Shown: positions 4,656 to 33,502 of the stretch, piece after piece
Numbering within the stretch: position 1 is the stretch's first letter
Layout: each line of letters starts with the position of its first letter
Source: a virus
Taxonomy: Duplodnaviria; Heunggongvirae; Uroviricota; Caudoviricetes
DNA: 64,000 nucleotides
Virus record (IMG/VR): IMGVR_UViG_2703718869_000013
Span: 33,127-97,126 of that record
Reading direction: 5' to 3' (one strand)
Notes under the pieces: generated by a model
What the model saw: only the letters and a program-made list of their open reading frames with translations
Databases searched by the model: none
What the model was told of the DNA's origin: nothing
Program-made: the position numbers and the translations under genes

Positions 4656-5165
4656 ATGGGACACAATAACACTAAGGGAAACCGTAAATTTATTAAGGGC
4701 CGCTATACTGCCAACGCGGCCAAAGGCGAACGACTGGTATCTTCTGAATTCCAGCTCACTTTTGCAGGCCGTGAAGATATCAGCGTACTGGTTCGTACGT
4801 CGCAAATTCCTGAAATGACCCGCGAGGATGTGGAGGACTATGGTCCGAATGGTGTGAAGTTCAACCAGCACGGACCAATTCGAAACTCTGGGGAAATCCA
4901 GGTCCAGTGCGTGGAGACTATCGAAGGCGATATTCTTCAGTTCATCAAGGATCGCATTGCGGCGAAGGACTATGTTGATATCACGATGGCTGCTACCCCT
5001 GAATCCAAATCTTCCGGGGTTAACGCTGTGACAAAAGCTGCTACAACAATTGAAATGTTGGACTGCAAAATCTACAGTGATGCAATCGACTTTAGTACCG
5101 AAGATGTGACTGCCGCTGTGCGCCCGTCACTTCGTATCGTTTACAACTGGATTGAGTGGGATTAA
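4656..5165 (+). CDS. putative tail structural protein
   Basis: 169 aa ORF, last gene of the + strand late operon; followed by a strong terminator. Confidence 0.35.
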   Translation: MGHNNTKGNRKFIKGRYTANAAKGERLVSSEFQLTFAGREDISVLVRTSQIPEMTREDVEDYGPNGVKFNQHGPIRNSGEIQVQCVETIEGDILQFIKDRIAAKDYVDITMAATPESKSSGVNAVTKAATTIEMLDCKIYSDAIDFSTEDVTAAVRPSLRIVYNWIEWD

Positions 5166-5184
5166 GAGTCACCCCTTGTATTTT

Positions 5185-5208
5185 AAAGCTCCTACGGGAG
5201 CTTTTTTG
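5185..5208 (+). terminator. rho-independent terminator of the late structural operon
   Basis: Stem aaagctcc / ggagcttt with loop tacg, followed by tttt. Confidence 0.65.
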
Positions 5209-5248
5209 TGCTTAAATTATGCCGGTATAGCGAAATTTTGAGCATATT

Positions 5249-5545
5249 ATGGAAATTGATTTTTCATACTCTCCTGAAACGATAGAACGAAGATTCGAAA
5301 TAATTGGATGCAAAACTATTTCAGAGGAGCATTATTGGATTCTCTATGATGCCAATACATGGTTATGTGCCTTAGCAGAATGTCGGCCATCGTTATGTGC
5401 AGGGGAGGGAGGACTTCGACATAAGGTGCTGGCTACACTTGAAGTGAACACGTTACGATATTGGTGTGTCGAAATACTTAGGGATAACAAAGAATTACAT
5501 TTATTATTGCTGAATAAGTGTGCGCCTCTGCGCAGGAAAGCATAA
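5249..5545 (+). CDS. hypothetical small protein (AT-rich island)
   Basis: 98 aa ORF in AT-rich DNA after the terminator; weak RBS; no recognisable family. Confidence 0.3.
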   Translation: MEIDFSYSPETIERRFEIIGCKTISEEHYWILYDANTWLCALAECRPSLCAGEGGLRHKVLATLEVNTLRYWCVEILRDNKELHLLLLNKCAPLRRKA

Positions 5546-5711
5546 GAAAACCCAACCGCCATACTGGAATTATCAGAAGAATATGTGCGGAAAGTTATAG
5601 CTAGCTATTGAAAAGCTAAAGTAGATCGGTTAGATTTACTTTACTCATCTACCATGCGTAGAAAGAGCGATCGAACCCGATACATAGCAATATGTGTCGG
5701 GTTCAGCTTTT

Positions 5712-6176
5712 TTATGTCCCAAGTGCTCTTTTTCTGCTTTGTTTGAGTGTTCTGATTTTACTGTCATAGGTTACAACATAGGCTGTTTTGAGAAGCCAAT
5801 AGTCTCTACGTGCGGATAGCACAACAACGTAGTTTTCACACTCGTTCCAGATTACCCACTCTTCAGTTGGTCCTCGTCTTTCAGACCAACATGATATATC
5901 GCAATGGTCATAATTCCTTATCATATGCGCGATCCAGCGGATCCGCTTACACCGTTCAAGATCTGGTATTCGTTCTTCTTCTATTTTTCCCTCTGATACT
6001 AAATGCCAAAATCCGAACTCTTTCCCATCATATTCCGGTGAATAACGTAATCGAACAGGGAGACCCTTAAACGTTATATTAGAGATTAAAATATCTTCTC
6101 TAACAACATCATATACATCGTCTATATACTCTTGCCAACTTCCATTGAAGTACAATAAATCTGGCATTTGAAGCAT
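5712..6176 (-). CDS. hypothetical protein, downstream partner of a coupled two-gene operon
   Basis: ATG at 6176-6174 preceded by GGGAGG; its start overlaps the stop of the upstream gene (TGATG); AT-rich; no family recognised. The listed ORF extends to 6191. Confidence 0.5.
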   Translation of the reverse strand: MLQMPDLLYFNGSWQEYIDDVYDVVREDILISNITFKGLPVRLRYSPEYDGKEFGFWHLVSEGKIEEERIPDLERCKRIRWIAHMIRNYDHCDISCWSERRGPTEEWVIWNECENYVVVLSARRDYWLLKTAYVVTYDSKIRTLKQSRKRALGT

Positions 6177-6880: not shown

Positions 6881-7048
6881 GTTAACTCCACTTATTGTTA
6901 GGTAGAATTGTCCGTTAGTTGTTTATTAATTGCAATAATTGGACGTTCTGATTTGCTAACTACGTCATCTTACCAGGACGCCTATGAGTTTTCCTCATGG
7001 CAAACTAGAGGTGTTGAAAGTATGCATGGTTATAATTAGAGCAATCTA

Positions 7049-7894
7049 TCACCCTCTGAATCCTACCGGTATACCCCATTGTTCGTTATCTTTATTTTTG
7101 GCTAATACCGCATTAAGAGCTTCGTTTACCGTCATGCAATGCGGTAGATTATCGAAGTTTGATATCCAGCCAATATCAGGAGAACGCTTGTTCTTCAGGT
7201 AAGCATATTTCCGCGCTGCCGCCTCTACTTTCTGCTTGAACTCATGTTTTTGAGCGCGTTTTTTGGATAACCGCAGATTGTCAGCCTTTGCTTTTGCTTC
7301 AGCGATCCATGAAGTCAATTTTTTGAGTCTGGTCGTTCCGGCACCGCCGGAAACTGATCTTTTTGTTTTTTTAACTTGTGACTTCTTATTCTTTATTGCC
7401 ACGTCATCCTGACAGGGGGAGGGGGTATCATTTTGACATGGGGGTGTGGATAAAAAATTAAATAAAGCCAATGTCTTAGCGAGAACAGCTTTAACCTTGG
7501 TTGCCGCTGAAGAGATCTTTAATTTGCTTTCAATCAGCGCATTTTTGGCTTGTTGTGCGAAGGCCAAAAAGGATGGTGTAAACCGGTACAGGTTAGCGCG
7601 ACGTTCACGGTGATCGCCGATAACAATCTCTACAGACAGAATTCCTTTGTTTACAGCTTCACGGAATGCACGAACGACGGTTGATTGGCTATAACCAGTT
7701 TCTGCCGCGATCAGGCGGTGAGGCTTGTGAATGAAGTATTCACTGGTTGTTGCCGCTAGATTTGCACATTGCGACAGGATATGCCCGGCGCTACGAGATA
7801 GACCGGAGTGTGTTACAAAGCAGGCCAATTCATAGCCAGAAAAAGTAAAATCGCTCATCGTTATACAGCTCAGGAAAGTGACTTTAGCCAGCAT
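7049..7894 (-). CDS. repL: RepL-like lytic replication initiator
   Basis: 281 aa, immediately downstream of a KilA-N protein as in the P1 kilA-repL operon; identification by size, position and basic C-terminal half. Confidence 0.6.
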   Translation of the reverse strand: MLAKVTFLSCITMSDFTFSGYELACFVTHSGLSRSAGHILSQCANLAATTSEYFIHKPHRLIAAETGYSQSTVVRAFREAVNKGILSVEIVIGDHRERRANLYRFTPSFLAFAQQAKNALIESKLKISSAATKVKAVLAKTLALFNFLSTPPCQNDTPSPCQDDVAIKNKKSQVKKTKRSVSGGAGTTRLKKLTSWIAEAKAKADNLRLSKKRAQKHEFKQKVEAAARKYAYLKNKRSPDIGWISNFDNLPHCMTVNEALNAVLAKNKDNEQWGIPVGFRG

Positions 7895-19366: not shown

Positions 19367-20202
19367 TGCAGCGTTCCTGGTTTAATAACCGGCTTACATC
19401 AGCTAAGCAAAAGTCATTGCTCTATAAATCATTGGCTGATTTGGTTCAGTCAATGATGGACACCTTTGTTGACCCATGGTTGGAGCGAATTACCAACCGG
19501 AAGTCTATTTTCTCCATGAGCAAGGAGGATCTGGAGACCAGGACAAATGAACTTGGCCAGTTCTTTACTATCAGAACCTCGGACTCATCTTCCGTTCCGA
19601 TGTTGTTACAACAGCGGCTTGATGAGATCCACTTTAAGGGAACTGAACGTCCTATAAACCAGACAATTTACCGCGAATTTAACGGTATTTCTGTTTTATG
19701 GGATCCGATATATGCACCGGTGGACCTTGAGCGTCATCCCTATGGCACAGTTCTAATACCAGAAAGCACATTGGAGACTACCGGCGGCACATTCGGCGAG
19801 ATGTTTCTGACTTCCAGAGGGATGATCAGTATTCCCATAAACGACCTGGCCCGGACAATGGGTATTACTGGCACGATAGATCAGTCCGCAATTACAGAAG
19901 AAATTCTCAGAAAGTTTAATCAGTTCGTAAAGCCTCTACTGCCACTGCATATAGTGTTTGATGGGCTTACGCTCTATTTGTCGGTTGTTGTAAATGAACA
20001 GGCCGACATGATCACTTTGAACGAGATTTCTGATACCGAAAAAGCATTCTGCTGGTTTGAAACTTCGGATACAACTTCGCTTACTGGAGTTACGTCGATT
20101 AGCGCCCCGATCACCGCAACGCCTGGTGGCACTATTGTGAAAGCGACACCTACGTTTGATCGCACCCGCGCAGATGATTTGTTGCTGGATAGCGACGCCT
20201 GA
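19363..20202 (+). CDS. baseplate/tail-fibre hinge protein
   Basis: 279 aa; overlapping start; followed by GC-rich hairpin near 20214-20236. Confidence 0.4.
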   Translation: MMQRSWFNNRLTSAKQKSLLYKSLADLVQSMMDTFVDPWLERITNRKSIFSMSKEDLETRTNELGQFFTIRTSDSSSVPMLLQQRLDEIHFKGTERPINQTIYREFNGISVLWDPIYAPVDLERHPYGTVLIPESTLETTGGTFGEMFLTSRGMISIPINDLARTMGITGTIDQSAITEEILRKFNQFVKPLLPLHIVFDGLTLYLSVVVNEQADMITLNEISDTEKAFCWFETSDTTSLTGVTSISAPITATPGGTIVKATPTFDRTRADDLLLDSDA

Positions 20203-20280
20203 CAATCACCCCGTCCGCAGGGCGGGGTGACAAGTTACTTCTCTTACAATGAGGCTTCACAACAGTGATTAGGGAAAATC

Positions 20281-20715
20281 ATGTCTGACGTCTCAACAAA
20301 CCTCTATAAGAGTCAGTTGTTGGACTATTACTATCAGCGGCGCGCTGAATCGTCCATTAACAAAGGCTCTCGATTTTTAATCAGCAAGGCCGTTTTCGGT
20401 ACCAGTTCTCTGGTTACTAAGAAAGGAGATGGCACTTATGAGATTGGAGAACTGCCAAAGGCTTTCGATCTGGCAGAACTGACCAGCCAATTTTGTACCA
20501 TCAACCTCGTGCCAACCTACTCAGGTGGGATAATTACTGTCCGAATGGACCTTGATCAAAGCCAGTTGCAGGAAGGGAAAAACTACCCATTCAACACTCT
20601 GGTTGTTCTGGATAACGAGAACAAGCCAATCGCCATTATTTGTGTCCAGGAAGACTCGCTGTATGTGGGCAAAACATATACCGCAGTTATGGCCATAAAC
20701 ACGACTACAGCATAA
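20281..20715 (+). CDS. tail fibre-associated protein (R-like)
   Basis: 144 aa ORF immediately upstream of the tail fibre gene. Confidence 0.4.
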
Positions 20716-20726
20716 GGATATGCTTG

Positions 20727-23576
20727 ATGAATGACGTTACAGTTGTTACATCGGTTACTTACCCATCACCCGAGTCGTTGGCTCTGGTTGCTGATGTGCA
20801 ATACCACGAACCATATCTGTCAGCCGCGCTAAACCGAAAATTCAGGGGGATTGTTGACCCGGGATTTTATGCCGGTTTCTTACCTAAGCCTGGCGGTGGG
20901 ATGAACCTGTTAATCACCTCAGTGGATGGAGATAAAACCGCAGGCGCGGCGTCGGTGGATATTGGTGAATTCTACCAGGTAACTATTCAGCAATGTACGG
21001 ATATTCCTCTTGCACTTAGTGCAGGCAAGAAATATGCAATTGTGCTGAAGGGAAGATACCTCCTTGGAGAGGATACCTATCAGGTTAATACCGCGTCACA
21101 TATTCATGCGGCTGAATTTGTTACCAGAACCTATACCGATTCATATCAGTTAGGAGATGGGGAGCTGCTTGTTTGTACGGTGAATATCCCTGCTGGAGTA
21201 TCAGCCATTACCCAGGAGATGATTGATACATCCGAGCGTATTAACCGCACGATCGGCATTGATATCTCAGACTCTGTAACCAGTAGCAGAAGTGATGTTG
21301 CTGCAAGTTCGCTGGCAGTTAAAAAAGCCTACGATCTGGCGAACAGTAAGTATACGGCGCAGGATGCAAGCACAACGCAAAAGGGATTAGTTCAGCTCAG
21401 TAGCGAAACTAACAGCGACAGCGAAACAATGGCGGCTACCCCTAAAGCCGTTAAGTCTGTAAAAGATCTTGCTGATACCAAAGCGCCAATAGAAAGCCCG
21501 AGTCTGACAGGAACGCCAACCGCGCCGACGGCAGCGCAAGGTACAAATAGCACGCAGATCGCAAATACAGCCTTTGTTAAGGCAGCTATAACGGCACTTA
21601 TCAACGGTGCACCTGGCACACTGGATACGCTTAAAGAAATAGCTGCTGCGATCAATAACGACCCGAATTTCAGCACAACTATCAACAATGCTCTGGCTCT
21701 TAAAGCTCCTTTAGCAAGTCCTGCATTAACGGGAATACCTACTGCGCCTACCGCTGCACAGGGTACGAATAACACGCAGATTGCTACGACCGCTTATGTA
21801 AGAGCTGCCATATCCGCATTGGTTGGTTCATCACCAGAAGCTCTTGATACCCTGAATGAGCTTGCCGCAGCACTTGGTAATGACCCGAACTTTGCGACAA
21901 CAATGACAAATGCGCTGGCAGGCAAACAGCCTCTGGATGCAACTTTAACCGCGCTTGCTGGTCTTGCTACAGGCGCAAATAAATTGCCGTACTTTACCGG
22001 TACAGACACTATTTCTCAGACTGACTTAACGTCAGTCGGTCGCGATATTCTGGCCAAAACAAGCGTCCTTGCTGTTATCCAATACCTTGATTTAAGAGAA
22101 CTTGGCACAAGCGGTGAAAAGATCCCCCTGTTGAGCACGGCTAACAAATGGGGTGCACGCCAGACTTTCAACGGTGGGATCACCGGGGCGCTGACAGGGA
22201 ACGCCGACACCGCGACGAAATTAAAAACAGCCATAAACATTAATGGCGTCAGATTCGATGGTTCGGCTGACATTAATATCAATACTCTGGTATCTCGCGG
22301 TCGCGTAACGGCCCTAGAGGCGAATGCACAGGGAACATCCGGGATTCAGCTGTATGAGGCATACAACAATGGCTACCCTTCCCCCTATGGCAATGTGCTT
22401 CACCTTAAAGGTGCCACCGCTGCTGGCGAAGGTGAGTTATTCATTGGCTGGAGTGGCACGAGCGGTGACCATGCGCCCGTACATATCCGTTCGCGGCGTG
22501 ATACTGATTCTGCCAACTGGTCTGAATGGGCGCAGGTCTATACGTCAAAAGATTCAATTCCCGGCGTCAATGCCAAAGGGGATCAGGACACCTCTGGTAA
22601 TGCGGCTACAGCGACCAAGTTGCAGACAGCATGTACTATCAATGGCGTCTCGTTTGATGGTTCTACTGATATCACTTTAACCGCTGCGCATGTTGCTGCT
22701 TTTGCCAGAAGAGCAACGGATACGTATGCCGATGCGGATGGGGGCGTTCCCTGGAATGCCGAATCAGGCGCTTACAATGTCATTCGCTCTGCCGACAGCT
22801 ATATTCTGGTTAACTTCTATACCGGAGTCGGAAGTTGCCCGACCTTGCAGATGAAGGCGCATTACAGAAATGGTGGTCTGTTCTACCGTTCTTCAAGAGA
22901 CGGTTATGGTTTTGAGGAAGACTGGGCAGAAGTTTATACCTCGAAAAATCTTCCACCAGAAAGCTACCCAGTCGGCGCACCAATCCCGTGGCCATCAGAT
23001 ACCGTTCCGTCTGGTTATGCCCTGATGCAGGGGCAGACTTTTGACAAATCTGCATACCCGAAACTTGCAGCGGCTTATCCGTCAGGCGTTATTCCTGATA
23101 TGCGTGGCTGGACGATTAAGGGCAAGCCCGGCAGTGGTCGTGCCGTATTGTCTCAGGAACAGGACGGCATTAAATCGCACACCCACAGCGCCAGCGCATC
23201 CAGTACGGATTTGGGGACGAAAACCACATCGTCGTTTGATTACGGTACTAAAACGACCAGTTCATTTGATTACGGCACAAAAACTACGAATAGCGCTGGA
23301 AATCATTCACACAATATACCTGTTGGTCACACTGGCGCGGGGAATGGTGTATCAGCCGGTTTTAACGCTGCGTTAGGTACTGGTACCACGTCGAGCGCAG
23401 GCGAGCATGCTCACAATGTATATATCGGTGCCCATAACCACACTATCGGCATTGGTGCTCATGCCCATTCTGTCATTATTGGTCCCCACGGACACACCAT
23501 CACCGTTAACGCTACGGGTAACGAAGAAAACACCGTAAAAAACATCGCATTTAACTATATTGTGAGGCTTGCATAA
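20727..23576 (+). CDS. S: tail fibre protein S with lambda Stf-like distal tip
   Basis: ATG at 20727 preceded by AAGGA; repeated motif [20 protein letters not shown] of the T4 gp37 / P1 S / Mu S family; C-terminus has His-x-His boxes and ends [13 protein letters not shown] as lambda Stf does. Confidence 0.85.
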
Positions 23577-24154
23577 TGACATTCAGAATGAGTGAACAAT
23601 CACGGACCATAAAAATTTATAATCTACTGGCTGGAACCAATGAGTTTATTGGTGAAGGTGATGCATACATTCCACCTCATACAGGTCTGCCTGCAAACAG
23701 TACCGATATTGCCCCGCCAGATATTCCGGCTGGCTTCGTGGCCGTTTTCAACAGTGATGAGGCATCGTGGAATCTCGTTGAAGACCATCGGGGAAAAACC
23801 GTCTATGACGTGGCTTCCGGCGACGCGTTATTTATTTCTGAACTTGGCCCATTACCGGAAAATGTCACCTGGTTATCCCCGGAAGGGGAGTTTCAGAAGT
23901 GGAACGGCACAGCCTGGGTGAAAGATGCAGAAGCAGAAAAACTGTTCCGGATCCGGAAGGCGGAAGAAACAAAAAACAGCCTGATGCAGATGGCCAGTGA
24001 GCATATTGCGCCACTTCAGGATGCCGTAGATTTGGATATTGCGACGGAGGAAGAGGCATCGTTACTGACTGCATGGAAGACATATCGGGTATTGTTGAAT
24101 CGTGTTGATACAACAGTAGCATCGGATGTTGAGTGGCCAGTCGCCCCGCAATAA
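23576..24154 (+). CDS. tfa: tail fibre assembly protein (lambda Tfa-like)
   Basis: 192 aa, [44 protein letters not shown]..., near-identical over most of its length to lambda Tfa as I recall it. Confidence 0.85.
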
Positions 24155-24197
24155 AAGGATAAAGCCATCGATAGAAATATTGATGGCTTCATGTACT

Positions 24198-24701
24198 CTA
24201 TTTATACAATACAACACCGCTCTTTTTTGTTATATATGTGCAGTTCGATGGTATATCTTTATTTATAAAAGACATTGCACCTATTTTTACATTATCCCCA
24301 ATTTTACGTGATAATCCAATGATGCAACAATTAGCTCCGATATCAACGTTATTACCAATTTTTACTCTTGAACCAGGCATGTCACCATCTACCTGTCCAA
24401 TGGTAGTATTCTGTCGCAAAACCAGATTTTCACCAGCATCAACAGCAAAATGAACAACAATTCCAGTATGATGGGGAATTGTTAAACCTTTTCCAATATT
24501 TGCGCCCAATCCAATTTCGCAACCAAATCTGTTAATTATATTATTGTTTAACTTTCTGGCTGCTTTCTTATGTAATTTATTGCCATTAATATACATTTCA
24601 TTAGCCAGTCTCCACCAGAAAAGGAAATTCCGATTGCGCTGCTTCTTCTCTCTTAATAGTCGCCAAACATCCATTTTTTCACGCCTGATGATTTCAGCCA
24701 T
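24198..24701 (-). CDS. hexapeptide-repeat O-acetyltransferase (WcaB/CysE-like)
   Basis: Left-handed beta-helix repeats (GCEIGLGANIGKGLTIPHHTGIVV...) and WcaB-like length from Met at 24701; the listed ORF extends to 24770; very AT-rich flanks. Confidence 0.6.
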   Translation of the reverse strand: MAEIIRREKMDVWRLLREKKQRNRNFLFWWRLANEMYINGNKLHKKAARKLNNNIINRFGCEIGLGANIGKGLTIPHHTGIVVHFAVDAGENLVLRQNTTIGQVDGDMPGSRVKIGNNVDIGANCCIIGLSRKIGDNVKIGAMSFINKDIPSNCTYITKKSGVVLYK

Positions 24702-25525
24702 CCAGTAGCTCAATAGAGCTTTTGAATTCCCGAAGATGACAAAGTGAATAGCTATTAAGTAACATAACATATTGCAACTGCCTATATTTTTTGGTTTCTA
24801 TGTTTATATATTGACATTATAATTAAAACAATAATCATCAGTGTGTTACTGCGTTCCTGCTAAACTAAATCAACGCACAATGTAAACACAAATGTTAATT
24901 TTAAACTGAGCGCTAAAGGGATGTCAATATTGTATTGATAATGAGTTGCAAGATTGCCAACACTTTCTATATTTTTGGATGTAATAATTTATATTTTATC
25001 TATTTAGTGTTTCTTTAGACTTATTAAGGATGTCATTATTAATTTATGGCTTGCCATTTCTATACATATCTGTTAAAAATTTTGACTTGTTTGTTGAAAA
25101 TAGATTTAATTGATTGGTTTATTTTTTACATGACGCTCTTTAATATAGCTTCAGGTATATATAAGCACAATGCATTATTTCCAGAGGAAATTAACAAAAT
25201 TGTTAGCTCTTATTTGTTGAGCTTATAGATATTAATTAAGGCCCGATTCCGGGCCTTTCCTCATTCCGGCTTTTCGGGAAACGTTACTGGAAGGATGGAG
25301 GTATCCGTGGATTCGACTTTCTGCGCATAGAGAATCCACTCGGTTAATTTTTGTTTACCCTGAACGGAAATAATGCCTAGCCGTAACTGTGAGTCCCAGA
25401 GCTGAGTTTTATCCCTGACGAGCTGTAGCAGGCTTTGCTTTTCTTTTTCCGCTTGTTGTCTTTGCATGACCGGTTGAGAAGTTACTTTGCATACCATTAC
25501 CTCCTGACAACGTAGGAGGGAACTT

Positions 25526-25855
25526 GTGCTTGACACACAGGAATTAGCTCCAGTTGCTATTGCGCTCCTGCTTTCAGTAATTGGTGGGATAGGCACGTTC
25601 CTGATGGATGTCCGAGACGGTCGCCAGTCTGGCAATTTGTTGGGATTGGTTACGGAGATCTTTGTTGCAGTGACAGCTGGCGCGGTGGCGTACCTATTGG
25701 GGCAACACGAGGGCTGGGAGTTATCAATTACGTACTTAATGGTAACGATAGCCAGCAATAACGGTCATGAGGTGATTTCAGGGATGAAACGAGTGAATAT
25801 CGATAGCATTCTGAATGTTCTTACAAGTTTGGTGAAAAAGGGAGGTGGGAAATGA
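25526..25855 (+). CDS. lydA: holin (LydA-like)
   Basis: 109 aa with two hydrophobic helices; GTG start preceded by AGGAGGG (25514-25520); followed by an overlapping lydB-like gene. Confidence 0.55.
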   Translation: MLDTQELAPVAIALLLSVIGGIGTFLMDVRDGRQSGNLLGLVTEIFVAVTAGAVAYLLGQHEGWELSITYLMVTIASNNGHEVISGMKRVNIDSILNVLTSLVKKGGGK

Positions 25856-26295
25856 TTGGCTGGGGTGTATGCGCTCTTGCGTTAGCCTTAGCCGATCGCT
25901 ATTTGCTAAAACGCAAGGACATCACGCATTTAGAACTTGGTGATGTGGAAATTAAACCGGGTTTCATCCGGGTGCCGTTCAAATACCGGTCTAAATTCCC
26001 GTTTTTGCGCGGCGCAACGGTCAGATATTGGATCCGCGATGTTCAGAAGCCAACGACAGTGATTGAAGGCGAACAACGTTGTCTGACGTCGGCTGAACAG
26101 GGCGAAAACAGTGAATGGTTGTACATACCCACTGAATATATGGGTAAAGGAGAACGGCTGTGGCATTTCAACGTCATGGTTACGCATGGCGACTCGTTCA
26201 TTAACCCGTTGTATCGGATTTTCCCTGTTACTCAGCAAATCCGCAGAAGTTACGTAATAAATCTCGCACAGGATGTGTCAGATGACGAAAAATAA
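25852..26295 (+). CDS. lydB: LydB-like antiholin / lysis regulator
   Basis: 147 aa with N-terminal hydrophobic segment, overlapping the holin stop. Confidence 0.45.
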   Translation: MIGWGVCALALALADRYLLKRKDITHLELGDVEIKPGFIRVPFKYRSKFPFLRGATVRYWIRDVQKPTTVIEGEQRCLTSAEQGENSEWLYIPTEYMGKGERLWHFNVMVTHGDSFINPLYRIFPVTQQIRRSYVINLAQDVSDDEK

Positions 26296-26884
26296 GTATG
26301 CAACGGTCGATTTTGACCAGGTTAATGAAAAGGGGCTGAAATCCCTTATCGCGGCGATCAATAAAACCGGTGTTACGGTAATTGAGGTTGACTCCAGCAA
26401 CCGCGCAACAACGAAAGATGGCGTTAAAGTTAAAACCGCAAAGCTGGTTCTTAACGACGGACAAATTCTTGCCATACAGGTAAACGATACTGGCGATATA
26501 TCGTCTGTGAGGCTGAATGGAAAAGCTATTCCTAACGCTCAGTCGCCGGATATCAAGACGCTTGGTACCGTCATGGGGCAAGCGGCCCGCAAAAACTCCG
26601 CAAAATTCCAGAAATCACTGATCGCCAAAGCGAAACGTGTTGCCAATCCGGTAGACAAGAAACCGGCAGTAAAATCCAACTTTCAGCGCCTGCAAGAGGC
26701 AAAACAGCGGAATGCTCAGGTGGTTGCCGCTTATAAATCAGCGCAGAACTCGGTGTCTTTCAATCAACAGCAGATCACTGATTTGCGGGCGAAGCTGGAT
26801 AAGGAGACAGGCCGACTCAATAACGAAAAGGCCCGAAATGGCGAACTCAAACGCCGTCTTAAGCAACTGAAAGCAGGAAATTAA
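26273..26884 (+). CDS. hdf: Hdf-like protein (homolog of a DarA fragment)
   Basis: Shares motifs NDGQILAI and KNSAKFQ with the downstream 639-aa DarA-like protein (SDGQTISI, KNSAKFQ); start may be ATG at 26282. Confidence 0.5.
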   Translation: MCQMTKNKYATVDFDQVNEKGLKSLIAAINKTGVTVIEVDSSNRATTKDGVKVKTAKLVLNDGQILAIQVNDTGDISSVRLNGKAIPNAQSPDIKTLGTVMGQAARKNSAKFQKSLIAKAKRVANPVDKKPAVKSNFQRLQEAKQRNAQVVAAYKSAQNSVSFNQQQITDLRAKLDKETGRLNNEKARNGELKRRLKQLKAGN

Positions 26885-26885
26885 C

Positions 26886-28805
26886 ATGGAACAGTTCAAT
26901 ATCAATAAAGGGGTGGCGATCAAGCCTGGGCTTGACGTGCTTCCCCCGCCAGTGACTGATGATGAATATCGCGCATTAATGGCCGGTGAGGACCGCTATC
27001 TGATGACGGAATCCAACACCCTGGAGGAAATCGAGGCTACGTTCTTCTATGACACGCCGATCCACTGGTGTGCTACGGATTTACTGGAGGCGATTAGTTC
27101 TACTCGTTTGCAGCTACACCGGACCATGCAGGCATTTGTCCGGGCATTGAACCAGAAGCTGAATGGTACCGGAATCTCTGCGGGGAGTGATAAAACGGGG
27201 GACGTGGCCCAGAACGGTGCACGCGCGATCGGCGGGGCTGAAATTGGCCGGGCGCGTAACGTTAACGGGCTGCCGGTTCTGCCAGCCATTATTCCGCTCA
27301 GTGATGGTCAGACTATCAGCATTCTGTTTCATAGCCCGACAGCGGAAAACCGGATCACCAATAGCGATACGCTGATTGCTTTCCAGTTCTTACTGAATAA
27401 AAAAGACGTTACTCATACCGTTGCTCCGATGAGTGGACGTGATATGACGCTGGCGCAGGTCACCATGAAACTTGCCAACCTTGCAGAGAAAAACTCGGCA
27501 AAATTCCAGCGTGCGCAGAAGAAGAAAAAAGCCCTGGTTGATGAAATAACCCAACTACAGGCTGACAGTGACCAGAAAGAGGATGCCATGAGCGACCTCG
27601 CGGATCAGGTGGCAGCGGTAGAAGGCCAGAAGGCAGATCTGGAGCAGAAAATTAACGTGGTTGCTTCGGAAGCGGATTCTCTTTATCAAGAAAATGAGCG
27701 TTTGCAGGCGGAGATTGATCAGCTCAATCGCACTGGTGGGCGCGATACCATTGCTCCTGCGGGGATGACTGGTGGGCACTCTCGCGTGCTGACGGATCGC
27801 CTTGCCAGTATCAAAAATCGTATGCATATGGACGGGGAAGCGACGCTCAGTAATGGTGCATCAATGAAGCAATTCATTGGGGATGGCGAAGGGTATATCC
27901 AGTTAACCGATCCGGATGGCAGCGTATACATGATCAAGGCTAAATCCATACAGGGTGTGGACATGGCAGATGCGATCGGCAAGCTGTTTAAAGCCTATAA
28001 AGCGGGTAATGTATCGGAATACCTGGTCCAACCAGAAGAACATAAACCGGAAAACGTCGAACCTGAACCAGCGGAGGATACCGGTAGCTCTTCGCCTGAA
28101 CCAGAAGTCTCTGTAGGTGCATATCGATATGCCCTGCAAATGCGTCCGGCGGCCCCTGGCGCAATACCTGAAGGTAACAAAGCAATTCTGCCGCGCCCTG
28201 ATGAAGGTGACCCGTATTATGAATATGCACGCTACGGCATTGCTACTTACGATACCCCGCTTTCTGATCAGCAAATGAGTGAGTACGACCTGAAGTTATT
28301 GCCTCGCGAGGATTCTTTCGACTTCCTGGCGAAGACACTTACTAATGGTCCGTTTGGCAAATATGCACAAAAAGCTCTGGATCTGGCCACCAGCTCACCA
28401 GACGAGTTCCGCGTAATGCTGAAAACTCAGTTTCAAAAAACTTTCCCCAATATTGCGTTTCCGGGGGGCGCTGGCACCGAGAAAATGGTGCAGAGCATGA
28501 TCAATGCATTGCAGGCCGAAGTCGGTGAGATTACTCAGCCAGAACCTGCCCCGGCACAGCCTGATGAAACGGTTAGCGAAGCAGATGCAGAGGCTAATAA
28601 AGCCATTGAATATCTCAATAACGTGATGGATATGCAAAGCACTGACATGGCGGAGATCCGTAACGCCCGGGGTAATGTCCGGGAAGCGATTGCAGCCCTT
28701 CAGGCTGCCGGGCGTTTTGAGGAAAACGAAGAGCTGGTTAATGGCGCTGCTCGCCACCTGGCTGATCTGCTGGTAGCAATCCAGAAAGCGGGGGTAGCGG
28801 CATGA
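26886..28805 (+). CDS. darA: DarA-like virion antirestriction protein
   Basis: 639 aa; position after lydAB as in the P1 darA operon; coiled-coil central region. Confidence 0.55.
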   Translation: MEQFNINKGVAIKPGLDVLPPPVTDDEYRALMAGEDRYLMTESNTLEEIEATFFYDTPIHWCATDLLEAISSTRLQLHRTMQAFVRALNQKLNGTGISAGSDKTGDVAQNGARAIGGAEIGRARNVNGLPVLPAIIPLSDGQTISILFHSPTAENRITNSDTLIAFQFLLNKKDVTHTVAPMSGRDMTLAQVTMKLANLAEKNSAKFQRAQKKKKALVDEITQLQADSDQKEDAMSDLADQVAAVEGQKADLEQKINVVASEADSLYQENERLQAEIDQLNRTGGRDTIAPAGMTGGHSRVLTDRLASIKNRMHMDGEATLSNGASMKQFIGDGEGYIQLTDPDGSVYMIKAKSIQGVDMADAIGKLFKAYKAGNVSEYLVQPEEHKPENVEPEPAEDTGSSSPEPEVSVGAYRYALQMRPAAPGAIPEGNKAILPRPDEGDPYYEYARYGIATYDTPLSDQQMSEYDLKLLPREDSFDFLAKTLTNGPFGKYAQKALDLATSSPDEFRVMLKTQFQKTFPNIAFPGGAGTEKMVQSMINALQAEVGEITQPEPAPAQPDETVSEADAEANKAIEYLNNVMDMQSTDMAEIRNARGNVREAIAALQAAGRFEENEELVNGAARHLADLLVAIQKAGVAA

Positions 28806-29167: not shown

Positions 29168-30514
29168 CATCCTCCACGCCCCGAAGGGCGTGGATTCCTG
29201 CTACGTTCAGGCTGTCGCCTGAATCATTTCGGTGGGTTCCTGCTTCAACGGGCGGCCTGACTGCACCATCCCTCCACAGGCAAGTACGGCGTGTCCCGCC
29301 GCTAAAATGTTACGAGCGCCGTTTACATCGGCGTTCGCTGTATATCCACATACCTGGCATCTGAATTTACTTTGTGACAGGCGATTTTCTTTCGCTGTAT
29401 GACCACAGCACGCGCAACGCTGGCTTGTGTACGCTGGCGGAACAGCAAGCACCTGACCGCCACGCCAGAGCTGCTTGTACTCAAGCTGGCGGCGCATTTC
29501 ATACCAGCCCTGATCCAGTATCGAACGGTTTAAACCTGATTTTGCCCGGACATTGCGACCCGGATGACTTATCGTTCCCGCCGCTGACTTTGACATGTAT
29601 TTAACCTTCAAATCCTCAATGACAATCATTGCGTGGTTTTTGCTGATGATCGTTGTGACTTTATGAAGGTAGTCTCTGCGGATATTTGCGATACGAAAAT
29701 GCAGTCGCTGTATTTTGCGTTTCTGCTTCTGCCAGTTGTTGCTGAATTTGACCTTGCGGCTTAACTGTCGCTGAAGTCTCGCCAGCTTCTTCTGGTTTTT
29801 CTGAAAACTGTTTACAGGCTCAAAGACTGTGCCATCTGACAGCGTGGCGAGTTTAGCCACGCCAGCATCCAGCCCGATCATTGATGCTGAAGGGTGAACC
29901 GGAGTGGATATTTCACTTTCTGTCTGAATACTGATGTACCACTTACCGCAGGACTGGCTGACAGTGACATTTTTCACAACTCCCGTGACCTGACGGCTAT
30001 TCCGGTAGCGCATCCAGCCCAGTTTCGGCAGAAAAATACGGCTGTTTTCCTGATCGAGCTTAACGCCCTGCGGGTAGCGAAATGCATCATTCTGTCCCCG
30101 CTTTTTGAATCGGGGAAAAGCAGCCCGATTCTGGAAGAAGTTTTTGTAAGCCCGCTCAAGGTCTTTCAGTGACTGTTGCAATGGCTGTGAGGGAGAATCT
30201 ATAAGCCATTCGGTTTCAGTGTCTTTTTTCCACTCAACCAACCAGGAAGCCATTTTCGTGTAAGGGATGTATTTTTTACCGGCCTCATGATTCTCATTCT
30301 GAAGCGCCAGAGCACGGTTGAAAACGAAACGACAAGCTCCGGCAAAGTGCCTCATTTGACACTCCTGTTGACCATCTGGTTTTAACCGGAATTTGAATGA
30401 CACCTGTTGTTTCATGTCACTATTTTAAGCAAAAATAGCCGGGAGGAAAACTGTGCCTTATATCCCCACTATGAGGAGCGTAGGGGGCGGCACATTGGAT
30501 AAGGCGTAACAGGG
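29168..30514 (-). mobile_element. IS200/IS605-family insertion element carrying tnpB only; boundaries approximate
   Basis: TnpB ORF with flanking non-coding DNA inserted between ddrA and ddrB; subterminal hairpin ccacgccc cgaa gggcgtgg at 29174-29193; no tnpA ORF seen. Confidence 0.55.
29207..30415 (-). CDS. tnpB: TnpB (OrfB) RNA-guided nuclease-type transposase-associated protein
   Basis: 402 aa; RuvC-like motifs ([21 protein letters not shown]) and C-terminal zinc finger CACCGH...CQVCG. Confidence 0.85.
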
Positions 30515-33502
30515 ATGAGCTTAAGCGATCAGGTGGTAATGGCCACCAGCATAGAAACGCTGATCGAGCTGCTAAAGAACCTGCCCGATTATGGGCGGGT
30601 TTCGTATGTGGTGACAGCGAAGGGAGACGAGGTAAAAACAGCGTTTGATATCGTCGATGCCTCAGTTCTTTTGGTATCCAATACTCTGGATGGGAAAATT
30701 AATCCAGACTATCCCCAGGAACTTCAGCCGCGCGACCGGACCCGCGCATCCAGCCTTCTTCAGGTTAACCAGATATCCAAAGATTTGCGGCCTGCTCAGC
30801 TTACCGATTCCGGTTTATCCAGCCATGGCGCGCCGATAATTGGTGAGGACAATGCCGTTGAGTCAGGTAATGGACGGACCATGGGGATCATCAAAGCCTA
30901 TCAGGACGGCAATGCGGATCGGTATCGTGAGTACCTGATTGATCATGCGACCGAATTCGGCATACGACCTGAAAAGGTTGAATCAATGACGGCTCCGGTA
31001 CTGGTGCGCCGCCGGTTAACTAAGGTTGACCGCGTTCAGTTTGCCAAGGACTCAAATATTTCTGATCTTCAGGAAATGGCAGCCAGTGAAAAGGCTTTTG
31101 TTGATGCCGACAGCATAACACCGGCGATGATGGCGCTTTTTAACCCGTCAGAAAGCGGAGATCTGCTTAGCCGCAGTAATGACGCGTTTATTCGCGGATT
31201 TATGACGCAAGTTGGTGCCACACAGGCGGCTGGCCTTGTAACTGAAGATGGGCGACCAACACGGCAACTTGTTGACCGTATACAAAACGCGATCTTTGCC
31301 AAGGCATATAAGGATGCGCGCCTGGTAAGGATGGTTGCAGAAGAACCTGATCCGGATATGCGTAATGTTCTGACGGCGCTTAATGCGGCAGCCAATGATT
31401 TTGTCCAGATGCAGGCTTTATCAGGAGAAGCGCACAAGCAGGCTGTGACAACTATTGTTGATGGCATTGAGACAGCGGATAGCCTCGATAAAAAGGCGCT
31501 GGCGGCATTGAAAGATGCGGTAGACCTGGTAAGGCAATCGAAGGAGTCAGGCCAGCATATTACCGATGTTATTGCTCAGGGGGATATGTTCAGCGAAACG
31601 GCCCCGGAAGTGAAAGCACTCGCGTTGTTCATCGTCGCGAATAACCGTAGCGCGAAGCGTATGGCCACCGCCTTTAAGTTGATGGCGCAACGTATCAATG
31701 ATGAGTTACAGCACCAGGGCCAGGCGCTCGGGGATATGTTTGGCGGCGGCGATGTGTCGTTACAGGATATCCTTCGCCAAGTATCTCAGGAACTGGAAAA
31801 CGAAGGTATGCAAGGGATATCTGGCGGTCTTTTCGAGTCAGCTTCTGGCGGTAGTTACAACGGTGTTGCTCCATATACCAGCTTGCTATTACATCGGGCA
31901 TCCGGCATCAAAGACATTATTCATCTGATCAGGCTGCTTTCCCGTACAGATCCCCAGGATGAACAGCTTGTTCAAGTGCTTGCGCATTTTGTTCGAATGC
32001 CTGTTGCCGACGTGAAAAAATGGTGCCGATTATTCGGTATCAGCAATTCGTTACTTCGCGGCTTGTTAAATCACGCATCCTCCCTTGGGCGCGATGGCTT
32101 TGACGAGATAGCGCAGGCGATAAAAAACGGAGATATGCCACCAGCTATTGACTGGTTTTCCATTCGCCCAACCAGGGTGAAAGCATTCCTTAGCGCGGCG
32201 CATTCGGCATCACCATTGGCAGAAATGGTTCAGAGGTTATCGCTCATATTCACAGACCATACCGCGTTGGGTGATCTGACTCTGGACGAGATGAAAGAAG
32301 CCTCCATTCAGTGGGCCGATCAACAAAATGAGGTTAACTCAGACTTCTTGCCAGCATTCAGGAAGGCCGTTAGTAAAGCGGATGATGCCCGTGGAATTCT
32401 GAAGGCATTTAAGGCATTGCAAAGTCGGGTTAATAAACATGTCGGTGATATCGATGGGGTAACGGCGGAAGGCAGGGATATCCTTAAAGAGCACGGCATA
32501 ACGCCAGAGTTTATTGATGAGATCAGGACGGATATGCAGCGTGAGGTCGTATCGTCCCTGCAAATTGTAGTCAGAGCGTTGGCGGATGCTAATCCGAAGA
32601 GTGCGGCCATTGTTAACCGGGTTATTGGTGATATTGAAGCATCGGAGGGCATGGGGGCGCTGAAACACTTCCTTTCGCGAGCGTTTAATCCTAACGGCAA
32701 TATTCTCCCCGGCATTATTGGTGAGGCTAAAAAGTATGTCAGCGAAGAAGAACTTGAGCATCTTGACCAACTACTTAAGCGATTCTCATATAACCCGCAG
32801 ACACGCTGGCAAATGAATCAGCGAAGTATGGGTTCGGTCCACGAGAAAGTGTTATCCGCCATGAACAGTGCGATCGCCAACTCATCCGTATCTGAAGAAA
32901 AAGCTCTTGAGTGGGCCGACTCTTTTATCACGGAAGAAGTGGAAGAAGCCCGCGCTGGACAGAATGGTGGGATAGACCTGCGCAAGGAACTTGCTGATAT
33001 TTATCGCCTGACCGGCGGTAAAATTTCGACCTTATCAAAGGTGGTTCACCACCAGGGAAGGGCATATGCAAATCTTAATGGTGTTGTTGCTGTCAATTTG
33101 AACGATGAAAATGCAAGTGCACTGTGGCACGAGCTGGGTCATCATCTTGAGTACAGTAACCCAGGTTTGTTAGAGAAAGCCCGGTCATTCCTGAAGGCCA
33201 ATGTTGAAGGGGATAAGCCATCTTTCGTCAATATCGGTGGGCGTGGCAAGCCTGAATGGTGCTTCAGATCTCGATTGAGTAATATTTATATGGCGAAGGT
33301 ATACCCGCCAGCCTCAGTAAGTAACACCGGGAAAATTCGGCAGAAATCACCGACTATTTCCAAAACGTCAGCAACGGAAGTATTCTCTATGGCTCTTCAG
33401 TTGTATCATGGCAAAGAGGCCGCTGCCGCATCACTGATGAATGGTGACGGATTGCTGGAACTGTTATTAGGTGTGGCAAAGGAGCTAAATAATGCAGATT
33501 AA
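30515..33502 (+). CDS. ddrB: DdrB-like large protein with HExxH motif
   Basis: 995 aa; position in the dar operon; HELGHH at 33128-33145. Confidence 0.45.
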   Translation: MSLSDQVVMATSIETLIELLKNLPDYGRVSYVVTAKGDEVKTAFDIVDASVLLVSNTLDGKINPDYPQELQPRDRTRASSLLQVNQISKDLRPAQLTDSGLSSHGAPIIGEDNAVESGNGRTMGIIKAYQDGNADRYREYLIDHATEFGIRPEKVESMTAPVLVRRRLTKVDRVQFAKDSNISDLQEMAASEKAFVDADSITPAMMALFNPSESGDLLSRSNDAFIRGFMTQVGATQAAGLVTEDGRPTRQLVDRIQNAIFAKAYKDARLVRMVAEEPDPDMRNVLTALNAAANDFVQMQALSGEAHKQAVTTIVDGIETADSLDKKALAALKDAVDLVRQSKESGQHITDVIAQGDMFSETAPEVKALALFIVANNRSAKRMATAFKLMAQRINDELQHQGQALGDMFGGGDVSLQDILRQVSQELENEGMQGISGGLFESASGGSYNGVAPYTSLLLHRASGIKDIIHLIRLLSRTDPQDEQLVQVLAHFVRMPVADVKKWCRLFGISNSLLRGLLNHASSLGRDGFDEIAQAIKNGDMPPAIDWFSIRPTRVKAFLSAAHSASPLAEMVQRLSLIFTDHTALGDLTLDEMKEASIQWADQQNEVNSDFLPAFRKAVSKADDARGILKAFKALQSRVNKHVGDIDGVTAEGRDILKEHGITPEFIDEIRTDMQREVVSSLQIVVRALADANPKSAAIVNRVIGDIEASEGMGALKHFLSRAFNPNGNILPGIIGEAKKYVSEEELEHLDQLLKRFSYNPQTRWQMNQRSMGSVHEKVLSAMNSAIANSSVSEEKALEWADSFITEEVEEARAGQNGGIDLRKELADIYRLTGGKISTLSKVVHHQGRAYANLNGVVAVNLNDENASALWHELGHHLEYSNPGLLEKARSFLKANVEGDKPSFVNIGGRGKPEWCFRSRLSNIYMAKVYPPASVSNTGKIRQKSPTISKTSATEVFSMALQLYHGKEAAAASLMNGDGLLELLLGVAKELNNAD

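Follow-up and report, generated by a model that had tools for sequence, protein, structure and literature searches.

The DNA considered here is a window of 64,000 nucleotides from a tailed-phage genome (Caudoviricetes; IMG/VR record IMGVR_UViG_2703718869_000013, positions 33,127 to 97,126) and, within this window, the region between the tail-fibre genes and lydA (24155-25525), which carries a gene for a hexapeptide acetyltransferase. By its sequence the window is the tail-fibre/dar junction of a P1-like (Punavirus) phage-plasmid. In P1 the variable end of the fibre operon lies in the C segment, which is inverted by Cin at cix sites. We regard it as rather probable that, taken together, a P2-type module came to lie within the C segment, cin was then lost through an independent deletion and the enzyme encoded by the module acetylates a surface glycan. 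The original prediction, in which an AT-rich island with the acetyltransferase gene had replaced cin and the C segment, was largely right in its observation and partly right in its interpretation. The replacement itself does not stand, since the same block is found inside the intact C segment of JL22, pECY44-3 and p15648-1 and cin was lost by a separate deletion. Public records already contain the arrangement in annotated form, and one paper has taken note of it.

Import of the module and loss of cin

The key to the history of the region came from relatives in which cin is retained. In JL22 the order is stf, tfa, acetyltransferase (annotated as 'sacF'), spacer, full-length U', Sv', cin, lydC and lydA, and the right half of the pECY44-3 locus is as in JL22. 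In p15648-1 the tfa-acetyltransferase-spacer block is inverted relative to both flanks, with cin abutting Sv-tfa and the acetyltransferase gene lying downstream of, and co-directional with, R-S'-U'. These layouts place the cargo between two chaperone genes in a C segment that is seen both ways round. Cin is present in all three and in pLH09-a-D. Because cin+ relatives hold the same block within an intact C segment, the island did not replace cin, and on this comparison the loss of cin is a separate deletion that is not due to the acetyltransferase gene. Among plasmids in PLSDB the whole island was found in 33, of which 20 share the deletion junction described below and 13 give two separate matches; three of these 13 were inspected (pECY44-3, p15648-1 and pLH09-a-D) and all have cin and lydC. 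Matches to the lydA side were obtained in approximately 490 plasmids, from which roughly 7% of P1-like plasmids would carry the island. In the pECY44-3 locus (CP069704.1; 5456-6160) an IS26 element truncates S just upstream of tfa, with a type I restriction-modification module upstream, and this truncation suggests that the pECY44-3 phage-plasmid is probably unable to make this fibre.

Close relatives of the window itself are also known. Phage vB_EcoM-Ro157c2YLVW (hereafter Ro157c2YLVW) matches window positions 23000-27000 over their full length at 98.2% identity, and plasmid pO111_2 of Escherichia coli O111:H-, with several other plasmids of Shiga toxin-producing E. coli (STEC), is 100% identical over 24155-26000, the sources of these plasmids being mostly human stool or cattle. 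The gene order in the window is R, S, U/tfa, the minus-strand acetyltransferase gene, an AT-rich spacer, a minus-strand tail-fibre-chaperone fragment, lydA, lydB, hdf and darA, and the features on which the argument draws are the following.

20727-23576, plus strand: tail-fibre gene S (Pfam Phage_fiber_2, Collar and gp37_C)
22075-22100: orphan cixR, TTATCCAATACCTTGATTTAAGAGAA, inside S (one mismatch to P1 cixR; aligned to the annotated P1 site)
22077-22665, plus strand: the one surviving copy of the 0.6-kb C-segment inverted repeat (matched by each of the two inverted copies in JL22, P1 and p15648-1)
23576-24154, plus strand: tail-fibre assembly gene in the U position, of lambda/P2 Tfa type (Caudo_TAP, E = 8e-43)
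24162-24189: hairpin between the convergent tfa and acetyltransferase genes (-16.4 and -15.6 kcal/mol)
24198-24770, minus strand: left-handed beta-helix (hexapeptide) acetyltransferase, 190 amino acids (phrog_2154, E = 1.9e-83)
24771-25240: AT-rich spacer of about 470 bp (26.4% GC against 46.8% in the whole window)
24898-24927, minus strand: candidate sigma-70 promoter for the acetyltransferase gene (TTGACA, 18-nt spacer, TAAAAT)
25238-25257: U/U' intergenic terminator hairpin of P1, AAGGCCCG..CGGGCCTT (-14.6 and -16 kcal/mol)
25261-25465, minus strand: 3' remnant of U', a truncated pseudogene of 67 codons plus stop (Caudo_TAP profile positions 55-131, E = 4e-18)
25465-25466: deletion junction (blast breakpoints against P1 and JL22)
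25479-25497, plus strand: late promoter LPdar, intact (identical to the annotated P1 LPdar)
25526-25855, plus strand: lydA, holin gene and first gene of the dar operon (Phage_holin_3_3; 98-99% identity to P1)

At the junction, window position 25465 corresponds to position 6130 of the P1 locus and 8463 of JL22, and window position 25466 to 9001 and 11341 respectively, so that the window lacks 2870 bp when measured on P1 and 2877 bp when measured on JL22. The lost DNA held lydC, cixL and Sv', as well as cin along with its promoters and enhancer, and also took in the 5' two thirds of U'. The remaining 3' third of U' shows 86% DNA identity to P1 U' and 95% to that of JL22, and its translation aligns with U' residues ~110-177. 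The U' stop codon adjoins the hairpin at 25238-25257, and P1 has an identical hairpin between U and U'. A minus-strand open reading frame (ORF) of 165 codons (25261-25758) fuses the U' remnant to the antisense of LPdar and lydA; this frame is a by-product of the deletion and does not represent a gene, and RefSeq labels its last 78 codons as U'. No microhomology was found at 25465/25466 and the junction is not at a cix site, and a Cin-mediated or homology-mediated deletion was therefore rejected.

Several searches were directed at the missing parts. Using tblastn, P1 Cin had no match at E <= 1 in the whole 64-kb window, and LydC, U' and Sv' yielded only the U' stump and the single repeat copy, LydC matching just its paralogue LydA. 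A 26-mer cix scan of the whole window, allowing up to seven mismatches, found only cixR. The idea of a cin gene or second cix site elsewhere in the window was rejected, the scans having given only cixR, the U' stump and a single repeat copy. In place of two inverted crossover sites with flanking repeats, the window thus keeps cixR and one copy of the repeat. Relative to P1 and JL22, cixR carries a G-to-A change adjoining the central TT (the crossover dinucleotide), which may reflect decay after the loss of Cin or may be a neutral variant. The earlier statement that invertase and cix sites are lacking holds for Cin in the 64 kb and for cix in 24155-25525 but overlooks cixR within S. The inverted U'-Sv' copies had also been described as gone, and this is correct for Sv' and for a working invertible segment but not for the 3' third of U', which occupies 25261-25465; of the DNA described as AT-rich up to lydA, it is 24771-25240 to which that description applies.

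Compared with the P1 C segment and its Cin-cix switch (represented also by G/Gin in Mu and Min in p15B), the window shares the position, R, Sc, cixR, the 0.6-kb repeat, the U/U' hairpin, LPdar and lydA, and the island-bearing cin+ relatives still show both orientations. Deletion of the invertase and lydC, of cixL and Sv' and of two thirds of U' has left the window with a dead switch. The later step in the history of the locus was a single illegitimate deletion of 2.88 kb, from mid-U' to just upstream of LPdar, which removed Sv', cixL, cin and lydC and locked the fibre in the Tfa-type configuration, leaving behind the U' stump and orphan cixR. The identical junction is present in Ro157c2YLVW, a complete phage genome record with STEC O157 as host, and since this deposited phage carries the junction the form without cin is apparently viable as a phage, its fibre being fixed.

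The imported part begins within the fibre gene. S consists of a constant P1 part and, from ~22965, a variable part that resembles gene H of P2-like prophages and lambda Stf. Positions 20000-22665 are 96-98% identical to P1 and JL22, lambda stf-tfa is 88.8% identical to the fibre tip and tfa of the window (23000 onward), and U/tfa shows 96% DNA identity to the G gene of a P2-like prophage. Sv-U of P1 is thus replaced in the window by a P2/lambda-type fibre end and Tfa, and where P1 has 28 bp between U and U' the window has approximately 1.1 kb of cargo. A full-length match to the Rfam model IS009 (RF02111) was found at 23919-24117 on the plus strand (192 bits against a gathering score of 117; E = 7e-48), wholly within the 3' end of the U/tfa coding sequence; the RF02111 model may capture conserved prophage tfa coding DNA and not an independent RNA.

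The source of this part is indicated by comparison with chromosomal prophages. Window positions 23000-24762, which take in tfa with the fibre tip before it, the hairpin and the greater part of the acetyltransferase gene, have 96% identity to a P2-like prophage in E. coli O104:H4; for a P2-like prophage in O157:H7 the value is 90.6%. The acetyltransferase gene was detected in 530 of the 5426 complete E. coli genomes, in most cases on the chromosome, and at both chromosomal loci that were inspected it adjoins the tail-fibre assembly gene of a P2-like prophage. The arrangement resembles that of a P2-like prophage moron placed after the tail-fibre assembly gene, with an AT-rich single gene and its own terminator between G and the tail operon, and the H-G-cargo block of these prophages is 96% identical to the window; the window differs in that the block has moved into the P1 invertible segment and has an extra 470-bp spacer unique to P1-like plasmids. 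In the O157:H7 and O104:H4 P2-like prophages the FI-FII-E-T-U block lies on the strand opposite to V-W-J-I-H-G, inverted relative to P2 itself, and as a result the acetyltransferase gene is co-directional with that for gpU and approximately 157 bp downstream of it. The O157:H7 JEONG-1266 prophage is degraded, with a frameshifted tape-measure gene and an IS3 fragment in place of the fibre gene.

In an ancestor, a P2-like prophage module took the place of the variable end of the P1 fibre operon (Sv-U) and brought in a tail-fibre C-terminus, a Tfa chaperone, the hairpin and the convergent AT-rich acetyltransferase gene as cargo. The imported block sits within the Cin-invertible C segment and still flips with it in cin+ relatives. 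Near codon 32 of the acetyltransferase gene (~24674 in the window) the identity to the P2-like copies drops away abruptly, which marks a sharp recombination breakpoint within the gene; the 3' 477 nt are P2-prophage-like and the 5' 96 nt, with the spacer, are of other origin. Exchange also appears to have continued after import. The window and Ro157c2YLVW diverge only in ~24100-25260, by 2-9% per 100 bp (~5%), with essentially identical flanks, and the best match to the hairpin and the 3' end of the acetyltransferase gene of the window is the O104:H4 prophage. This confined divergence and the O104:H4 match point to repeated exchange between P2-like prophages and P1-like plasmids, and the combination of a shared junction with a diverged island implies later allele exchange, probably with resident P2-like prophages.

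Identity and integrity of the acetyltransferase

The minus-strand hexapeptide acetyltransferase gene that had been predicted was confirmed as an ORF of 190 codons, annotated in RefSeq as 'serine O-acetyltransferase'. The product is assigned by profile to phrog_2154, an uncharacterised phage protein family, with a match that is full-length (residues 13-190 against profile positions 3-181 of 185). The Pfam Hexapep model gave E = 1.9e-5 but its 24.6 bits fall just below the cutoff of 27. An AlphaFold2 model (mean confidence pLDDT 95, pTM 0.87) shows five N-terminal helices followed by a left-handed beta-helix, with short strands in regular spacing from residue 84 to 179. Foldseek places this model with beta-helix acetyltransferases at a probability of 1.00, the nearest folds being CysE (TMq 0.70-0.75). 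The counterpart of CysE His158 is H100, which at least 90% of 39 homologues retain; that of CysE Asp143 is E85, a position occupied by E or D throughout. The repeats and fold, together with this catalytic His/acid pair, are those of the left-handed beta-helix acyltransferase superfamily.

The gene appears to be functional and is not a pseudogene, as judged from both sequence and model. Ratios of non-synonymous to synonymous substitution (dN/dS) among six copies, taken pairwise, are 0.05-0.26, the ORF is intact and identical in at least eight plasmids, and homologues at 55-69% identity span all 190 amino acids. A pseudogene, which would have undermined the original prediction, was therefore rejected for the window copy in view of these ratios, the intact frame and the retained catalytic His/Glu. 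The first 32 codons remain in frame despite saturated divergence, with a ratio of ~0.1, and a 158-amino-acid start as annotated in JL22 was rejected given this and the coverage of 190 amino acids by homologues. Other copies have decayed. In the pLH09-a-D locus (NZ_CP100548.1; ~7040-7620) the gene is disrupted, giving split tblastn pieces at ~50% identity, and in the O26 RM10386 plasmid (NZ_CP028125.1) it has a 1-bp length difference; it is unannotated in both records.

The name given in RefSeq raises the question of whether this is a genuine serine O-acetyltransferase, acting as an auxiliary metabolic gene that would supply O-acetylserine for more cysteine or for induction of the CysB regulon, in the lysogenic or the lytic state. 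The best profile matches are EpsC and cysE, the top PDB matches by sequence and by fold are all CysE enzymes, and the catalytic His/acid pair is kept. The scores, however, are far below the curated NCBIfam cutoffs: 77.5 against 150 for EpsC, 65.6 against 210.65 for cysE (TIGR01172) and 56.5 against 194.65 for WcaB (TIGR04016 or PRK10191), with 42.2 against 397 for PRK11132, and the curated cutoffs are likewise missed by all 39 aligned homologues. Residues of the CysE serine site are absent: Asp157 is replaced by Pro99, the columns for Arg192-His193 vary among family members and an Asp92-Pro93 motif is lacking. The N-terminal domain is of ~80 amino acids as opposed to ~140 in CysE, gives no Pfam SATase_N match and carries a family-specific FWWRLANE motif, and the protein ends at the beta-helix without the C-terminal CysK-binding tail. 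Linkage to tail-fibre genes and pairing with lipopolysaccharide (LPS) glycosyltransferases, described below, also have no metabolic rationale. The enzyme is thus most likely, on these sequence characters, not a serine acetyltransferase of the cysteine pathway, and we consider the metabolic explanation improbable.

The placement as WcaB/CysE-like therefore survives in the sense of a related hexapeptide enzyme but not as membership of either family. With WcaB and CysE (the LbH_SAT subgroup) the protein shares a helical N-domain joined to a beta-helix, the catalytic His/acid pair and 34-36% identity in the beta-helix (36% over 109 amino acids for E. coli K-12 WcaB); it differs in failing all curated cutoffs and in the position of its gene outside a colanic acid (wca) or cys context.

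Genomic contexts and the proposed role of the enzyme

Relatives in phrog_2154 at 35-55% identity are overwhelmingly found on mobile elements. Citrobacter phiNP and Hafnia yong2 (35-52% identity) show the layout of the window, with the gene next to that for tail-fibre assembly and pointing towards it. Tail-fibre genes are also immediate or near neighbours of the family member in prophages of E. coli, Xenorhabdus, Photorhabdus and Morganella and on a prophage-like metagenomic contig. In three of these elements the family member is directly followed by a co-directional glycosyltransferase gene: GT25 in Xenorhabdus (123 bits), a WaaZ-like Kdo transferase in Photorhabdus (E = 6e-22) and a GT9 heptosyltransferase-like gene in Morganella (32.6 bits against a cutoff of 22). 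The receptor of phiNP is the LPS core (PMC6456863), and a precedent for a prophage-borne beta-helix acetyltransferase that modifies a surface polysaccharide is provided by NeuO of prophage CUS-3 (PMC3046976). A chromosomal member (44% identity) in Intestinirhabdus and related metagenomic contigs, at 5001-5555 of the loci examined, adjoins ugd and arnT / arnE-F; this lipid A aminoarabinose neighbourhood may be a coincidence or a further link to LPS modification.

Assembly of the LPS core takes place at the cytoplasmic side of the inner membrane, where a soluble beta-helix acetyltransferase could have access to it. This site of assembly, the tail-fibre and glycosyltransferase contexts, the phiNP receptor and the NeuO precedent together lead us to favour acetylation of a surface sugar in lysogens. 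The gene would encode an active acetyl-CoA-dependent left-handed beta-helix O-acetyltransferase, and the predicted enzyme would acetylate an LPS sugar, with the core as leading candidate, or another surface glycan during its assembly at the inner membrane. The altered surface of the lysogen would then mask the receptor or exclude phages with related fibres. By analogy, acetylation of LPS or another surface sugar in lysogens, with receptor masking as the benefit, is our best functional guess, and to this extent the surface-polysaccharide modification put forward in the original prediction still holds as a guess.

NeuO, which acetylates polysialic acid in E. coli K1, is the best functional analogy, being likewise a prophage left-handed beta-helix acetyltransferase, but the two are different proteins. 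NeuO is absent from the 34 PDB sequence matches of the window protein at E <= 1e-3, the N-terminal domains differ, and the 5' phase-variable heptanucleotide repeat of neuO has no counterpart, there being no tandem repeat in 24100-25300. The enzyme might acetylate colanic acid (in the manner of WcaB), O-antigen, enterobacterial common antigen or capsule and not the LPS core, for which can be cited the identity to E. coli WcaB over the beta-helix with shared E-x-I and H-H motifs, the capsule modification carried out by NeuO (PMC3046976) and the finding that acetyltransferases are common in Klebsiella prophages, where they are suspected of modifying capsule (PMC13123978). Set against this, WcaB models score ~56 against cutoffs of ~195, neither a NeuO-like sequence match nor a phase-variable repeat was found, and the paired glycosyltransferases are of core type (GT25, GT9 and WaaZ-like) and not of the Wzy pathway. 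Moreover the hosts cover O157, O111, O26, O104 and O103, and a serotype-specific O-antigen is an unlikely target in hosts of so many O types. A polymer other than the LPS core is therefore thought unlikely, although less so than a role in serine metabolism.

In P2-like prophages the gene is flanked by the tail-fibre assembly gene and the tail operon, a position that may be a prophage cargo slot of the type in which anti-phage genes often collect, and this raises the possibility of an intracellular defence or counter-defence gene whose product acetylates a protein, nucleotide or small molecule. In P2 the slot after the tail-fibre assembly gene is that of the Z/fun exclusion gene, and toxin-antitoxin neighbours occur in the family (HicAB in phiNP and Morganella, hok in E. 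coli). The acetyltransferase matched none of the families in PADLOC-DB 2.0 at E <= 0.01, and membership of a known defence system was rejected on this basis. Fold and motifs are of the kind found in O-acetyltransferases acting on sugars or serine, and the conserved neighbour is a tail-fibre chaperone, as opposed to a generic hotspot, with three relatives paired with LPS glycosyltransferases. We hold a defence function to be as improbable as the metabolic one.

Several observations weigh against acetylation of a surface glycan. A glycosyltransferase neighbour was seen in only three of approximately 15 sampled contexts, several family copies are solitary chromosomal genes and no partner glycosyltransferase accompanies the E. 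coli copies. Among solved structures the nearest relatives, whether by sequence or by fold, are CysE serine acetyltransferases (20-29% identity). The promoter of the gene is a candidate identified by consensus match only, and the decayed copies in some plasmids indicate that the acetyltransferase is dispensable. To our knowledge there is no description of an O-acetylated LPS core in E. coli. The authors of the JL22 paper regarded it as unknown why the gene is present (PMC9603915); theirs was the sole discussion found, and literature searches on Ro157c2YLVW, pO111_2 and the old EDL933 product name yielded nothing on the function of the acetyltransferase.

A wider form of the favoured explanation can be put forward more tentatively. 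Here phrog_2154 as a whole would consist of widespread, tail-fibre-linked lysogenic-conversion enzymes, cytoplasmic beta-helix O-acetyltransferases that travel with receptor-binding modules, acetylate the LPS core and so mask the receptor class of the fibres they accompany; we see this as possible but doubtful, though less doubtful than any of the alternatives above. Such a family may span P2-like, P1-like and other myovirus prophages across Enterobacterales, its members acting alone or with a co-carried core glycosyltransferase.

Expression signals, neighbouring genes and significance

The hairpin that had been predicted after U is present at 24162-24189, U/tfa ending at 24154. Its z-scores on the two strands are -4.75 and -4.92, none of 200 shuffles folds as well, and it resembles a bidirectional terminator with a U-rich tail on the minus strand. 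It is kept with the gene in P2-like prophages, where matches begin at query base 1-7. The spacer has a different distribution: by blastn it is present in 65 of 5426 E. coli genomes, always on P1-like plasmids and never on the chromosome. A hidden gene or RNA in it was rejected, as the only ORF of at least 40 amino acids wholly inside the spacer is a low-complexity frame of 60 amino acids and Rfam gave no credible match (the best being cyano_tmRNA, 18 bits against a cutoff of 70). Short repeats in the spacer are at chance level.

The candidate promoter within the spacer matches 11 of 12 consensus positions, is the best site in the region and lies approximately 130 nt upstream of the ATG. Along with the strong hairpin and the low GC content (35% in the gene and 26% in the spacer, against 47% in the window), this consensus-only candidate suggests a moron-like character for the gene, and we suggest that the acetyltransferase would be expressed from its own promoter in the spacer and terminated at its own hairpin. 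In the frozen orientation of the window the gene and the late S-U operon converge. In the p15648-1 orientation the gene lies approximately 490 bp downstream of U', on the same strand and behind the U' hairpin. This difference suggests that late read-through may differ between fibre phases in cin+ relatives, and late expression of the acetyltransferase could thus be coupled to fibre phase in cin+ P1-like plasmids by way of the invertible segment.

Further along the window, a 402-amino-acid TnpB of the IS200/IS605 family (29207-30415, minus strand; domains OrfB_IS605, Cas12f1-like TNB and HTH_OrfB_IS605) starts 40 bp downstream of ddrA, at approximately the point where ddrB begins in P1 and Ro157c2YLVW.

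The locus provides a clean example of receptor-binding modules and their cargo moving between P2-like prophages and P1-like plasmids, and equally of a phase-variable host-range switch lost by simple deletion with the phage remaining viable, as in Ro157c2YLVW. If the enzyme does modify LPS or a different surface glycan, a prophage-borne capacity for surface modification that has so far gone uncharacterised would be present in roughly a tenth of complete E. coli genomes. The carriers include the O157:H7, O111, O26 and O104:H4 outbreak lineages, and such a function would have a bearing on phage susceptibility, on host range in phage therapy and possibly on serology.

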